NCBI GenBank assembly: GCA_021786105.1
Contig: JAJYNW010000023.1
Span: 1-13,428 of the forward strand
Length of the DNA stretch: 13,428 nt
DNA from: a bacterium
GTDB lineage: Bacteria > Patescibacteriota > Microgenomatia > Daviesbacterales > UBA10151
Direction of reading: 5' to 3'
The notes under the pieces were generated by a model. That model was not told where the DNA came from. It made no database searches and saw nothing but the letters and a program-made list of their open reading frames with translations. The translations under genes and the position numbers were made by a program. Each line of letters begins with the position of its first letter. Position 1 is the first letter of the stretch. Positions 261 through 11,160 of the stretch are shown in pieces.

Positions 261-289
261 TTGACAAAGTACGGACTTAGTACTACTAT
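261..289 (+). promoter_or_regulatory. sigma70-type promoter for the putative ncRNA
   Basis: TTGACA (261-266), 17-bp spacer, TACTAT (284-289); predicted start near 296, with no credible CDS downstream. Confidence 0.75.
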
Positions 290-295
290 TAAATC

Positions 296-630
296 ATCCT
301 AAAGGACATTAAGTCGATGGCCTGAAGGACTGCCCTTAGATAGACGCGCAAGCGAACTGTCACAGGGATTGAAAAATCCCTACTTAGCACGTTTAAAGCC
401 AGTATATTTTTCTTCACTGATTCGATTCTTTATGGGAGTTCGCAGTTGCGACCTGATACGACCAGTATCGGACTCACAGAACACCCACCTTAGCTATGCT
501 GAGGGAAAAATCTGGCTGACGACTAGTGTAGGGAGGAATTATTCTTCAAAGAAGAACAATTTTTCGAAGGAAGTATATTTTCCTTTTATATACTTCTTGT
601 ACCTACATCGCAGATTAAATCTGCAATTTT
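296..630 (+). ncRNA. putative structured non-coding RNA, family not recognised
   Basis: Nested helices: GATAG/CTGTC with a CGC-GCAA-GCG cap (339-361); TCCCTAC 377-383/GTAGGGA 528-534; AGCCAG 397-402/CTGGCT 512-517; a three-way junction GAGT 436-439/ACTC 472-475 enclosing two hairpins; CCTTAGC/GCTGAGG 488-504; TTCTTC/GAAGAA 542-556; GAAGTATAT/ATATACTTC 570-596. Imperfect pairs are G-U on the + strand, and the region sits between a promoter and a terminator-like hairpin. Confidence 0.6.
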
Positions 631-632
631 TC
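610..632 (+). terminator. possible intrinsic terminator
   Basis: GCAGAT-TAA-ATCTGC hairpin followed by AATTTTT and a further T-run at 641-647. Confidence 0.4.
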
Positions 633-678: not shown

Positions 679-695
679 GTGTTTACCAAAAATAA

Positions 696-766
696 GCCTC
701 CTTAGCTCAGTGGCAGAGCAGCGGTTTTGTAAACCGTCGACAACAGTTCGATTCTGTTAGGGGGCT
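696..766 (+). tRNA. tRNA-Thr(TGT)
   Basis: Cloverleaf: acceptor GCCTCCT/AGGGGGC, D-stem GCTC/GAGC, anticodon arm GCGGT-TT TGT AA-ACCGT, T-arm AACAG-TTCGATT-CTGTT, discriminator T. Followed by CCCA rather than an exact CCA. Confidence 0.93.
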
Positions 767-771
767 CCCAC

Positions 772-2679: not shown

Positions 2680-3183
2680 TTATCTTCCAATGTCTTCGGA
2701 TTCCAAAACCATTACCCAATCTTCTATGCCTACCTGCTTGATAAAATTCCTCAAGGCTTTCGAACAATTCTTTTTTGACCCCCAAACTGATCGTTGAAAA
2801 TGCACAAATCCCCACTCTTTAAGTTTCTGTCGTAATAAATCTCTGGCCGGCCGTCTCTTTTCTGGAATATCAAAAATGATCAACCTCCATTTACCATCCC
2901 ATTTCTCGCCAGGCATCTTTAAAGCTGCCATTAGCGCCTTATCTTTACCTCGCTCACTTAATCTATAAAGCAATTTCTCATCACTAACCAGCTCAATCAA
3001 CCCTTTTTCTCTTAAACGTTTAAAAGCTTGCGCTAAAGATGTTTTCTTCAACGGATATTCCCAACCACTGCCATAAGCATAATAGCCTGGATTGTACATA
3101 AAATCTTCCAGTCTCACATAACCGTCCACGGATTTTTCCAGTGCAAATAAAATCAAATTTGTTAAACTCTTCTTAACTTTCAT
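2680..3183 (-). CDS. PaaX-family transcriptional regulator (winged helix + Cas2-like ferredoxin domain)
   Basis: wHTH segment 'SLAQAFKRLREKGLIE..YRLSERG' followed by the PaaX-type 'WDGKWRLIIFDIPEKRR..RDLLR..L..WGF..FQRSVW'. Confidence 0.85.
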   Translation of the reverse strand: MKVKKSLTNLILFALEKSVDGYVRLEDFMYNPGYYAYGSGWEYPLKKTSLAQAFKRLREKGLIELVSDEKLLYRLSERGKDKALMAALKMPGEKWDGKWRLIIFDIPEKRRPARDLLRQKLKEWGFVHFQRSVWGSKKNCSKALRNFIKQVGIEDWVMVLESEDIGR

Positions 3184-7250: not shown

Positions 7251-8054
7251 TCAAATTTTTAGCACCTCAGGAGCATTCACAACTCTTTCCGGAATGGTGG
7301 TATTTAGCTCCAAATGATAAACCCCGGAAGGGATCAACCCACAGCCGCCATATTTTTTCATCACCCGAAGTTGTGCCAATACATCTTCTCCTGAGTGTCT
7401 TTTTGGCAAATCCTGCCAAAAATCGAAGCCACCGACCGATTTAAGTTTTTGGGTATCAAAAAGAGTACAGCCACCCACCCAAGCTATTTTGTATTTTTTC
7501 TGATTGGGCCATCTTATTTTCAACTTCTCTTCTAAATGATAAATATTGGCAGCATTATGCAGAACAAACCGCTGCCATTTTTTCCCTCCGGGAGCAATTT
7601 TCTCCGGCTCAACTTTCCCTTCCCAAAATTCCATCCTTTGCTGTGAGGGCCTCGCATCCTCCTTATAACTTAAACCAATCACCGCCCTGCCTACAAACCC
7701 GCAATTTTCTTCTTCAATCGCCGAAACCATCCCTTCTAAAACAAACGACTCTAAAATCAAATCGTCATCCAAAAATAACGTATATTTTGTTTTAGATTTT
7801 TCAAAAAGGCACGCCCTTTGATGAGCCATTCCTAAACAAGGCGAGTTTTTAAAAATTTTAAGATCGATAAATTTAGTGGCAAAAATCCTCTTGAGGGCTT
7901 GAATTTCCCCCTCTTTTTTTAAATCAAACTTTTCTGATTGATCAGAAACATAAATATTAAAATCTTTATATGTTTGATAAAGCAAACTGGTTAAAACTGC
8001 GGTTAATGCCGTTAACCTGTTATAGGTGGGAATTAAAACAGTAACTTTTTTCAA
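7251..8054 (-). CDS. glycosyltransferase family 2
   Basis: VTVLIPTYNR, FLDDD and GED motifs. TTG at 8054 overlaps the upstream TGA and has GGAGG 7 nt upstream, so it is preferred to the start at 8084. Confidence 0.88.
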   Translation of the reverse strand: MKKVTVLIPTYNRLTALTAVLTSLLYQTYKDFNIYVSDQSEKFDLKKEGEIQALKRIFATKFIDLKIFKNSPCLGMAHQRACLFEKSKTKYTLFLDDDLILESFVLEGMVSAIEEENCGFVGRAVIGLSYKEDARPSQQRMEFWEGKVEPEKIAPGGKKWQRFVLHNAANIYHLEEKLKIRWPNQKKYKIAWVGGCTLFDTQKLKSVGGFDFWQDLPKRHSGEDVLAQLRVMKKYGGCGLIPSGVYHLELNTTIPERVVNAPEVLKI

Positions 8055-9115
8055 ATGGAATCCTCCGCCAGCATTCTTTTGCAAGCCTTACAAATTTCCT
8101 CAGGTGTAGGAGCAGGAATACATTCTTTAGGAAAAGTATATTTTAAAATTTCATTTTTACTCTTTAGTTTTTGGGGATAATCAAAAAATAAAATCTCATT
8201 TTTCACCATCCAAGGAGTATGCTCAGGATTAGTTCTGGCGTATAGAACTACCACCGGCGTATTAACCGCAGCCGCAATATGGACCGGCCCGGTATTATTG
8301 GAAAGAAGCAACGGGCTGACTGATAAAAGTCCTATCAACTCTGAAAGATCGAGCTGGCCAACTAAAGAAAAAGCCGACGGATTTTGTTGCAAAATTATAT
8401 CCGCCAATTTACCCTCCTGTTCTATTCCGGTTATCACCACCTGTATTCCCAACCTGTTAGTAATCAGTTTTGTGCTCTTGGCAAAAAGTTCAACCGGAAA
8501 CCTTCTCTTTGGCTCGCTTGACCCGGGATGAACTATCATCCAAGGCTTGTAAAGATCAGCTCCGGCTTCTTCCAATTTTTTTATCGCCCGGTAAACACCA
8601 ATTTTCGGCACTTTCAGTGAAAGGTTAGGGTTTTTTGTTTTTGCACCAATTGCCTCAACCAACTTCAGCTGCCGTTTTACTCCATGGGTTACCCCGGAAA
8701 ATGGCTCCGGGTCCGGGTACCAGTCCGTCAAAAGCTTATGCGGGTTTTCCCGGCAATATGACAGCCTTCTGGGAATCCCGGTCAAATAGGCAATCATCGC
8801 GGCGGGCAACGGGTTTTGGCTGAAATTGGTAAAAATAATACTTAAATCAAATTGCCTTTTTTTAATCTTGGGGAGAAGATTTAGTAAATCCAAGTTGCTA
8901 CTTTCTTTTTCTGACTTAATCCAAGGCGCGGTAAAAACCAATGTTTGGTCAACCTCGGGGATAAACCGAGCGATAGAAGCACCCATTTCCGAAGTTAACA
9001 GAGTTAACTTAACACCGGAAAAACTTTCCTTAAGAGCCCGCAATGCTGGACTGGTCATCAAAACATCCCCTAAATTATCAAGTCTTATACAAAGAATATT
9101 CTTAATGTCATACAT
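8051..9115 (-). CDS. glycosyltransferase family 9 (heptosyltransferase-like)
   Basis: ILCIRLDNLGDVLMTSPALRALK, VHPGSS..KRRFP, SNNTGPVHIAAAV. ATG at 9115 overlaps the hldE stop. Confidence 0.9.
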   Translation of the reverse strand: MYDIKNILCIRLDNLGDVLMTSPALRALKESFSGVKLTLLTSEMGASIARFIPEVDQTLVFTAPWIKSEKESSNLDLLNLLPKIKKRQFDLSIIFTNFSQNPLPAAMIAYLTGIPRRLSYCRENPHKLLTDWYPDPEPFSGVTHGVKRQLKLVEAIGAKTKNPNLSLKVPKIGVYRAIKKLEEAGADLYKPWMIVHPGSSEPKRRFPVELFAKSTKLITNRLGIQVVITGIEQEGKLADIILQQNPSAFSLVGQLDLSELIGLLSVSPLLLSNNTGPVHIAAAVNTPVVVLYARTNPEHTPWMVKNEILFFDYPQKLKSKNEILKYTFPKECIPAPTPEEICKACKRMLAEDSI

Positions 9116-10607
9116 AGGTTTGGGTATAAGGGGTAGGCGGCTTAGGATTATCCCTACTTTTAACCTTCTTGATAATCTTGGTGGTAGAACGGTCATAAAC
9201 AATCGGGATAATCTTCACCATGCCTCCATAACCTTCCACCACCGGAGTTTCCGGCAGACTCTCCCGGCTGTAATCCCCGCCTTTGACATAAATATCGGGT
9301 TTAATAAGCTTAATCAAATCAATAGGAGTATCTTGGGCAAAAGATACCACCAAATCAACGCTAACCAAGGCTGATAACACTGCCATGCGGTCAGAAAGCG
9401 CATTAACCGGCCGATCTGACCCCTTCAGCCGCCTCACACTCCCATCAGAGTTAACACCTACAATCAAAACATCTCCCAATCTTTTGGCCTCGGATAAGTA
9501 AGCAGTATGCCCGACATGCAGAATGTCAAAACAACCATTGGTAAAAACAATCTTTTTATTCTGCTCCCTTACCCCGCTGATGAATTTTTTTAGGTCAGAT
9601 AAATTAGCAGCTGTATTTTGATCAAAAGACAGAGATTGCCTCAGTTGTGCCAGAAAACAAGGAGTTGTTCCAGGCTGCTCTAATACCAAAGAGGTAGCCT
9701 GAGAACAAATCCGGGCAGCCTGGGCAGTGGTGGCACCCGCTGATAAGGATAATGCTAAAGCAGCAGTGAAAGTATCCCCAGCCCCGGAAGCGTTCTTGTG
9801 ATCACGAAGCCGGGAACGAGTCCTTATCGAAAGTCCTCCTCGGCCAAAAAACATGGCCCCATCCACATCCAGCGTCACGGCCGCACTCTCTGCGCCGGTA
9901 ATTGTTAGCAACTGATCCTTTTTTGACCAAATTTGCCTAATCCTGTTTTCTCCTATTTCCTTTTTTTGCATTCCTAACAACTCTATTGTCTCCTGGTAAT
10001 TCGGCTTTACGGCCGTGGCTTTGACTTTGGCAAACTGTTTAAGACAACCGGAGTCTGCTATTAATACTCGCGGATTTTTCTGCTGCAGTTTAGCCAACTC
10101 CTTGATAATTCTTTTTGTCATCACCCCTTTGTTGTAATCTGAAACAATCACGGCATCAAACTGAGTGTATATTTGCGCCAGTTTTTTTATGAATTTTTTT
10201 TGGGTCTTTTTTTCCAGTCCATCCCGGCTGCCGGAATCAATTCTGACTACCATCTGAAAGTCCGAATTTACTCTCTGTTTAACTAAGGTCGTCCGCCTTC
10301 CATCCTTTAAAACCCATTCAGTATTAACCTTAAAAGACTTTAATTTTTCTAATAAGGCTTTCCCCTCCTGATCACTGCCGATAACTGTCAGAAGATAAAC
10401 TTCTGCCCCCATCGTGGCTACATTTACTGCCGTATTTGCTGCTCCGCCCGGAGTTTGGGTAACCTGCCGGCAGTCAACTACCGGCACCGGCGCCTCCCGG
10501 CAGACTCGGGATGATTCGCCTTTTAAAAACACATCTAAAATTGCATCACCAATTACCAGCACTTTTAATTTGGGAAATTTGTCTAAAAATTTTATGTAAT
10601 CACTCAT
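9108..10607 (-). CDS. hldE: bifunctional heptose-7-phosphate kinase / heptose-1-phosphate nucleotidyltransferase
   Basis: PfkB-type domain (VIGDAILD, EAPVPVV, PGGAANTA, SDYNKG, KPN, GAGDT) plus a nucleotidyltransferase domain (FTNGCFDILHVGH, GVNSD.SVRRLKG..RP, YVKGGDY, STT). ATG at 10607. Confidence 0.92.
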   Translation of the reverse strand: MSDYIKFLDKFPKLKVLVIGDAILDVFLKGESSRVCREAPVPVVDCRQVTQTPGGAANTAVNVATMGAEVYLLTVIGSDQEGKALLEKLKSFKVNTEWVLKDGRRTTLVKQRVNSDFQMVVRIDSGSRDGLEKKTQKKFIKKLAQIYTQFDAVIVSDYNKGVMTKRIIKELAKLQQKNPRVLIADSGCLKQFAKVKATAVKPNYQETIELLGMQKKEIGENRIRQIWSKKDQLLTITGAESAAVTLDVDGAMFFGRGGLSIRTRSRLRDHKNASGAGDTFTAALALSLSAGATTAQAARICSQATSLVLEQPGTTPCFLAQLRQSLSFDQNTAANLSDLKKFISGVREQNKKIVFTNGCFDILHVGHTAYLSEAKRLGDVLIVGVNSDGSVRRLKGSDRPVNALSDRMAVLSALVSVDLVVSFAQDTPIDLIKLIKPDIYVKGGDYSRESLPETPVVEGYGGMVKIIPIVYDRSTTKIIKKVKSRDNPKPPTPYTQTYV

Positions 10608-11160
10608 TTTTAATAATAAAATTTGCTGCATCTAAAAGATCACTGGCTTTATATTCAGGAGTCCTAAACTTTCCAGTCAGCCATTCTGTTTCATGACCGT
10701 TATCCACCAAAATACTGCGGCAGCCGGCCCGGTTGCCCGTTTCAATATCATTCAAAATATCCCCGACTACCCAGCAATTTTTTAAATCAAGGTTAAATTT
10801 TTCCCGGGCCTTTTTAAGCATTCCGGTCTTAGGTTTCCGACAGCTACAAACCTTGGCATATGTTTTTATTAACCCTTGGGGAAGATGCGGACAAAAATAA
10901 AAACCATCTATGTTAACCCCAGATGATTCCAATAACTTTTCTATTGTTTTAAAGGCTTTATTTAAAGCCGGAAGCATAAAATAGCCTCTGGCCAAACCGG
11001 ATTGGTTTGAGAAAATAAATATTTTAAAGCCGTTTTTTTGCATAATTTTTAGCCCTTCACAAGCCCCCGGTGTTAACCGAATCAATTTTGGATTAACATT
11101 GTAAGGAACGTTCTCAATCAAAGTGCCATCCTTGTCTAAAAAAACCGCTTTGTTTTTCAT
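10600..11160 (-). CDS. gmhB: D-glycero-D-manno-heptose 1,7-bisphosphate phosphatase (HAD IIIA)
   Basis: FLDKDGTL, SNQSGLARG, CPH..CSCRKP, VGD..ND motifs; adjacent to hldE. Confidence 0.88.
   Translation of the reverse strand: MKNKAVFLDKDGTLIENVPYNVNPKLIRLTPGACEGLKIMQKNGFKIFIFSNQSGLARGYFMLPALNKAFKTIEKLLESSGVNIDGFYFCPHLPQGLIKTYAKVCSCRKPKTGMLKKAREKFNLDLKNCWVVGDILNDIETGNRAGCRSILVDNGHETEWLTGKFRTPEYKASDLLDAANFIIKNE

Follow-up and report, generated by a model that had tools for sequence, protein, structure and literature searches.

The window, by which we mean the whole stretch of DNA analysed here (13,428 nucleotides; contig JAJYNW010000023.1 of assembly GCA_021786105.1, from a bacterium placed in Patescibacteriota; Microgenomatia; Daviesbacterales; UBA10151), houses at positions 261-632 a real, conserved and independently promoted gene for a structured non-coding RNA, encoded on the plus strand. 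Its neighbours are ordinary: a VTT/DedA-like membrane protein, a PaaX-type domain protein, an RDD+TPR protein, GT2 and GT9 glycosyltransferases and a PfkB-cytidylyltransferase fusion. The PaaX-type protein (2683-3183, minus strand, 167 aa) matches the central Cas2-like domain of PaaX at 79.2 bits. At 7254-10631, also on the minus strand, the GT2 and GT9 (heptosyltransferase-type) genes lie beside the HldE-like fusion of a PfkB kinase with a cytidylyltransferase, an arrangement that, judged from sequence, looks like a cluster for the activation and transfer of heptose-type sugars; the lineage of the window is generally thought to lack an outer membrane. The only Rfam match at gathering score in the whole window is a tRNA-Thr (UGU) at 695-770 (+), downstream of the RNA gene.

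The RNA gene opens with a sigma-70-type promoter at 261-289 (+), composed of a TTGACA -35 box (261-266), a 17-nt spacer and a TACTAT -10 box (284-289), which agrees with the consensus at 10 of 12 positions and is the sole promoter-like site on the plus strand between 150 and 800. Its -35 box, in the form TTGACAA, is found in all 20 aligned homologues, and from the spacing of the promoter we predict a transcript start at about 296. The plus strand of 290-632 folds at -105.9 kcal/mol (z -5.94, with 0 of 100 shuffles as good), the minus strand gives a z of -4.19, and the span closes with a hairpin (610-624) and a T run that resemble a terminator. An initial annotation of the same DNA had proposed the promoter, a structured plus-strand RNA transcribed from it and the terminator-like end, and had placed the RNA in a candidate new class; all of this stands except the new class, which does not survive the comparisons reported below.

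The region 296-630 is a composite and does not form one conserved domain architecture of ~300 nt. Conservation, in blastn and in alignment, falls into two blocks, 277-336 (the -10 box and a 5' leader) and 378-546 (the core), and alignment between species is lost beyond ~546. Because the two blocks adjoin directly in several relatives, the intervening 337-377 is an insertion in the window. This leader-core junction (columns 44-118 of alignment A1) holds anywhere from 0 to ~100 nt of unrelated sequence across species and is an expansion hot spot, occupied by unrelated hairpins in different species. In the window, the variable site is filled at 333-377 (+) by a hairpin (~333-367) with a GCAA loop and a linker; a loop of the GNRA type that had been listed among the features of the RNA does exist, but it sits in this window-specific hairpin.

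Beyond the core, the non-conserved 3' region (538-632, +) contains a hairpin at 542-547/551-556 followed by a U run, a second hairpin at 568-578/588-598, and the terminator at 610-624 with its own U run. Within it, 540-585 has a copy at 91% identity elsewhere in the genome (G000:C14:34359-34404, or positions 260-305 of locus L176), just past a small ORF, and is probably a shared terminator or intergenic repeat; because it is repeated in the same genome, we do not count it as part of a dedicated RNA architecture. The repeat is ~45 nt long, AT-rich and hairpin-forming, with weaker copies in G007, G020 and G023, and in one DNA run a contig from another locus matches 540-585.

The tRNA-Thr that follows is served by its own extended -10 element, TGCTAAAAT (670-678), and in most relatives the sequence aligned to it, ahead of the downstream tRNA, is a box of the TGGTAAAAT type; no -35 box is evident in 668-694. 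Of 19 relatives' loci, 16 have a tRNA on the same strand no more than ~400 nt downstream, and two of the three loci that lack one end within ~140 nt of the core. At several loci between L002 and L033, sub-threshold matches to RF04354 (Plastid-ycf2 5'UTR) lie antisense to tRNA genes, an artefact of a model that seems to catch tRNA-like sequence. In one metatranscriptome run, from a study that also includes DNA, the contigs overlap only the tRNA part (701-737) and originate from other organisms, which makes them uninformative on expression.

The core itself is a 160-nt rod. RNAalifold, applied to the 20 sequences of A1, resolves it into a closing stem, a central bubble and a terminal stem, all on the plus strand and given here in window coordinates: helices P1 (378-383/528-533), P2 (390-393/518-521), P3 (397-402/512-517) and P4 (407-416/500-509) lead to a bubble whose 5' strand spans 17 nt (417-433) and whose 3' strand spans 13 nt (487-499), beyond which the terminal stem P5 (434-441/479-486) carries a variable tip (442-478). 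Past the closing stem comes a conserved single-stranded 3' tail of the AGGAAUUAUU type (534-546, +), kept in 20 of 20 sequences save one A/G and one A/C position. Two long-range pairings deduced earlier from the single sequence, 377-383/528-534 and 397-402/512-517, are recovered as P1 and P3, and both covary. Two other proposals about the fold have to be given up: the pairing of CGATG (315-319) with CATCG (606-610) is contradicted by the local pairing of 316-319 in a leader hairpin, 606-610 being unalignable between species, and the supposed three-way junction at 436-475 is the variable tip of the terminal stem, where the minimum-free-energy fold of the segment has only a hairpin (453-459/465-471) and the relatives carry unrelated simple hairpins.

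Covariation supports this fold at two depths. Across the 42 pairs of the genus set, 98.6% of cells are paired, a share that drops to 39.5-52.4% if the 3' partners are shifted by one to three columns, and 12 pairs change on both sides; the observed values were reached by 0 of 500 shuffles on four of five measures and by 69 of 500 on the fifth ('further pair types'). In the class-wide alignment A3 (35 sequences), whose fit to the model biases it in the model's favour, changes on both sides occur at 33 of 37 pairs and paired cells make up 96.5%; none of 500 shuffles reaches the observed value on any of the five measures. The GGG/CCC pairs beside the bubble, as expected of a 6S RNA, are G-C in 35, 35 and 33 of the 35 class sequences, and the top pair of P4 shows one double change. 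The plus strand is confirmed by fixed U-G pairs, one of which, at alignment columns 156/249, is shared by all 20 sequences; on the opposite strand such pairs would be A-C mismatches. The preference for G-U on the plus strand, noticed originally in one sequence, holds across the alignment. A low-depth variant contig in DNA run X4, covering 397-525, differs by 12 substitutions and three one-base insertions, with all 16 listed places falling within 427-495, mostly in the terminal stem and variable tip; it probably derives from a co-occurring related strain.

We consider the core, 378-537 (+), to be a divergent 6S RNA (SsrS, the product of ssrS), and place the probability of this reading at about 0.85. 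In a permissive Rfam scan of 200-700 (501 nt), the top match was the 6S family RF00013, at 374-538 (+) with 29.9 bits and an E-value of 2.4e-4, covering the model from end to end (1-187 of 187); the remaining eight of nine matches at E<=10 were weak and unrelated, and RNase P, tmRNA, SRP and T-box RNAs, whose hallmarks had been sought in vain when the sequence was first read, gave no match at that threshold. The score lies 16.5 bits below the curated cut-off of 46.4 bits, and the window does not belong to the family at gathering score, a threshold that serves annotation as a working rule and describes no biological property. Because of this shortfall, automatic Rfam annotation would miss the 6S RNA of the window, and it appears to have a single copy to miss, as a search of the 1.04-Mb assembly (26 contigs, 92% complete) with RF00013 yielded one 6S candidate.

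The assignment is carried by a chain of homology that leads from the window to an accepted member of the family. A blastn search with 261-660 against 40 relatives matched 18 of 18 same-genus and 22 of 24 same-family genomes, while the few matches outside the family, fragments of 25-35 nt, were given no weight. R1, a covariance model made from the genus alignment A2, scores the core of the window at 155.1 bits and finds one full-length copy in each positive genome, 16 of 151 in the class, including six of seven from the family. R2, made from 35 sequences that do not include L044, finds one match each in 17 of 151 phylum genomes, and 11 of these genomes belong to other classes. With homologues this widespread, the description of the RNA as an orphan has to be withdrawn; the rates of 16/151 and 17/151 mean that the RNA is either very divergent or truly patchy. 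The chain ends at L044, where R2 (53.1 bits) and RF00013 (73.2 bits, above the cut-off of 46.4) mark identical coordinates on the same strand, which makes this locus a direct bridge from the RNA of the window to an accepted 6S RNA. The sequences flanking the bubble, GGGAG ... CACCCACCU, match the Rfam 6S consensus letter for letter and are present in L044 as well.

Searched directly, RF00013 recovers the same element from other parts of the lineage. Full-length matches were obtained at three of 19 genus and family loci at E<=0.1 (42.2, 39.9 and 29.9 bits), at four of 14 class loci at E<=1 (43.0, 42.8, 42.5 and 38.7 bits) and at four of 15 phylum loci at E<=1 (73.2, 46.2, 41.9 and 35.9 bits); in the orthologues they always fall on the element defined by the R1 and R2 models, with scores of 25-46.2 bits, L044 excepted. 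RF00013 exceeded its cut-off in 0 of 151 sampled class genomes, in a scan whose stricter filters missed the window's own genome, G000, and 6S RNA has for this reason gone unannotated in the class. A scan of genome contigs for the motif of the 5' leader was too degenerate to be of general use, giving at least 120 matches, of which those listed were nearly all due to chance and in unrelated taxa. When R2 was applied to four of these matches, the RNA was found only in L099, a Candidatus Daviesbacteria MAG that has both the leader motif and the core (154.9 bits) and matches the same-genus locus L004 over the stretch compared.

A further property of the core bears on how it might act. The 3' bubble strand can form an alternative hairpin of seven pairs, 488-494/498-504 (+), which excludes the top five pairs of P4 (412-416/500-504). 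Over the 20 sequences, 94.3% of the cells of this hairpin are paired, and its loop-closing pair is AU in five, CG in five, GC in five, UA in two, GU in one and something else in two. Under constrained folding, the hairpin and P4 states lie within 2.5 kcal/mol of each other in 17 of the 20, the exceptions being the window (-5.0 kcal/mol), L014 (+5.7) and L020 (+5.4). In the free RNA of the window, the hairpin state is favoured by 5.0 kcal/mol, and it is the minimum-free-energy state in eight of 20 homologues, the window included; when the 5' strand is blocked in silico, in imitation of a pRNA hybrid, at least five of the seven hairpin pairs form in 18 of 20 sequences. As modelled, a covarying hairpin in competition with an adjacent stem is the layout needed for pRNA-driven release. 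If the preference calculated for the window is real, its switch would be half-thrown from the start, nearer to the B. subtilis than to the E. coli case.

From what is established for other 6S RNAs, a working cycle can be proposed. The gene would be transcribed from its own strong promoter at 261-289, with a start ~80 nt upstream of the core in the window's family, so that the leader hairpin (296-336) and, in this genome, the private insertion hairpin would precede the rod; transcription would end at the AT-rich hairpins and terminator of 542-632. The rod with its open central bubble would mimic an open promoter and occupy the RNA polymerase holoenzyme that carries the housekeeping sigma factor. 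Upon a rise in NTP, the polymerase would use the 5' sides of the bubble and of P4 (~407-425) as template for a short pRNA, which would free 500-504, let the 488-494/498-504 hairpin snap shut and release the RNA. The model for these steps is the E. coli-type 6S RNA, in which, according to PMC8876501, pRNA synthesis unwinds the downstream helix and the 3' bubble hairpin then forms and drives release; for 6S-1 of B. subtilis, the same paper describes a small pre-formed hairpin.

How well other readings of the locus accommodate these observations can now be weighed. The initial annotation took 296-630 for a new multi-domain class of ~300 nt, a proposal that fits the want of an Rfam match at gathering score and the better-than-shuffled fold of the whole span, and it named a match to a known family as the outcome contrary to it. 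RF00013 is such a match. Conservation moreover ends at ~546 and is broken at 337-377, 540-585 is a repeated intergenic piece, and the 315-319/606-610 pair lacks a conserved partner; the reading fails because the core is a divergent 6S RNA, a known class that explains the candidate, and we hold it to be very improbable. Still harder to credit is a protein-coding region: an open frame with a TTG start does exist at 369-695 (108 aa), but it matches no Pfam family at E<=0.001, indels of 1 and 2 nt lie inside the most conserved blocks and the tips come in many lengths, and the substitutions are paired across helices, not gathered at third codon positions, with no conserved frame seen. A sub-threshold RF00013 score would also be expected of a 6S-like RNA of different action, such as one of the Ms1 type that binds core polymerase without templating pRNA, and Ms1 is, according to PMC9130861, a core-enzyme binder of 6S-related structure. 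We nevertheless think this improbable, given the letter-for-letter agreement of GGGAG ... CACCCACCU with the 6S consensus, the transitive link to a 6S RNA of 73.2 bits, and a covarying release hairpin that makes sense only with pRNA synthesis. A divergent 6S RNA is the reading that we carry forward.

What remains to be weighed is the 5' leader (296-336, +), which is near-invariant in the genus alignment and single-copy in its own genome by blastn. It is predicted to form an imperfect hairpin (297-300/326-329, 303-305/321-323 and 307-309/317-319, +) or, alternatively, a small one between UCC (297-299) and GGA (304-306) on the same strand. No pair of the alifold hairpin changes on both sides in the genus alignment; by eye, the UCC/GGA hairpin has one apparent double change (ACC/GGU in L014) and G-C for A-C in L027 and L030. 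The leader is found in the same-family genomes L024, L025 and L027, is degenerate in L030 and different in L026, and was absent from other families of the class and phylum when 14 and 14 loci, respectively, were inspected by eye. There, either only 6-10 nt separate the -10 box from the core (as in L029, L033, L034, L037, L041, L042 and L044) or, in L031, L032, L036, L043, L046 and L051, a short unrelated 5' hairpin stands between the two. Being seen only in the family of the window, the leader is a lineage-specific addition.

The decay machinery of the organism suggests what such an addition might do. Two nucleases of the genome exceed their curated cut-offs, RNase J with 549.6 bits (threshold 400) and RNase Y with 510.4 bits (threshold 454.35), at G000:C11:14763-16391 and G000:C23:3216-4475, and RNase E/G was not found in the assembly, which is 92% complete; going by these gene matches, its nucleases point to a Bacillus-type RNA decay toolkit. 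In B. subtilis, according to PMC10578484, RNase J1 removes an 11-nt leader from 6S-1, and the leader serves mainly to protect and stabilise the RNA. By analogy, the leader of the window most likely protects the RNA or serves in its processing, in an organism equipped with RNase J and RNase Y, and would most likely be a longer, structured counterpart of that 11-nt leader. Its near-invariant sequence, predicted loop bases included, exceeds the needs of a mere protective hairpin, and conservation this strong leaves room for a role beyond protection. Retained on the mature RNA, the leader could act as an additional functional domain that docks, for instance, a protein or RNA, making a composite 6S RNA in which 296-336 is more than a precursor or stability element. 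It is conserved as well as the best parts of the core, loop and bulge bases included, other genera of the family retain it (L024, L025 and L027), and it occurs once in the genome; on the other side, its absence from the 14 and 14 class and phylum loci inspected in other families means that it is not needed for 6S function, its fold is defined by no covariation, and no CsrA gene that might make use of its two AAGGA motifs was found in the 92% complete genome. On balance we regard retention as a functional domain as unlikely, if worth serious consideration. More speculative, and rather unlikely in our estimation, is the full proposal that the family's 6S RNA gained a sequence-invariant 5' domain that is kept on the mature RNA and has a second job, either protein docking or decay gated by RNase J/Y; if it were true, these ultra-small, host-dependent bacteria would control the turnover of their 6S RNA via the leader and not by pRNA synthesis alone.

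Particular roles for the leader were considered and set aside. Recognition of the two AAGGA motifs by CsrA was dropped, no CsrA gene having been found in the genome (92% complete). Pairing with the 3' tail (UCCU/AGGA) is at odds with the eight of 20 sequences in which the tail reads AGAA with no compensating change, and pairing with the 5' bubble strand (CCUAAAG/CUUUAYGG) with the variant leaders of L018 and L024, which are uncompensated. A mini-ORF (AUG-GCC-stop) lacks its stop in L007, L009, L012 and L015 and its AUG in L014.

The novelty of these findings is modest, and lies in a 6S clade missed by the Rfam cut-off across a class of the CPR and in a conserved 5' leader specific to one family. 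A full-text literature search, with most subscription journals outside its coverage, found nothing on 6S RNA in Patescibacteria, the candidate phyla radiation, Saccharibacteria or Microgenomates; the survey of 6S RNA across bacteria by Wehner et al. (2014) may nonetheless list representatives from candidate phyla. Alignments A2 and A3 could be used to extend the Rfam 6S family. That a 6S RNA is conserved at a genome size of ~1 Mb implies that the housekeeping polymerase has remained under global control by growth state in spite of heavy genome reduction.

Set beside known systems, the RNA of the window is placed by its resemblances and its departures alike. GOLLD and ROOL RNAs, to which it was at first likened, are several hundred nucleotides long and also adjoin tRNA genes, whereas what is conserved here amounts to ~160 nt and a leader of ~45 nt, and neither family matched at E<=10 in 200-700. 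That analogy was based solely on the tRNA neighbour, which has an extended -10 promoter of its own, and 6S followed by tRNA is here a conserved gene order. With Ms1 of actinobacteria, described in PMC9130861 as structurally related to 6S RNA and binding the core enzyme, it has in common a rod of 6S-related fold that escapes standard 6S models; it differs in keeping the 6S bubble signature and in being linked by model search to a bona fide Rfam 6S RNA. It resembles E. coli-type 6S RNA (RF00013) in being a rod of ~160 nt whose large central bubble separates closing and terminal stems, in the G-C helix and the CACCCACCU-type sequence conserved beside that bubble, in having a sigma-70-type promoter of its own and a single copy, and in a predicted 3' bubble hairpin that can be complete only once the adjacent downstream helix opens, as in the mechanism described by PMC8876501. 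Yet the window scores 29.9 bits, under the cut-off of 46.4, its hairpin has seven pairs as compared with nine in gamma-proteobacteria (PMC8876501) and is already competitive in the free RNA, and at the 5' end its family carries a conserved leader of 40 nt or more. Processing of the 5' end in the E. coli style is unlikely, because no RNase E/G was found in the genome. The RNA is also like 6S-1 (BsrA) of B. subtilis, which has a small 3' bubble hairpin pre-formed in the free RNA and which, according to PMC10578484, is made as a primary transcript with a 5' leader in a host with RNase J/RNase Y decay machinery. B. subtilis, however, has two 6S RNAs where one was found per genome here, and its leader is 11 nt long and unstructured, in contrast to the leader of the window, which at ~80 nt (~45 nt in minimal relatives) is predicted to be structured and is conserved in sequence.
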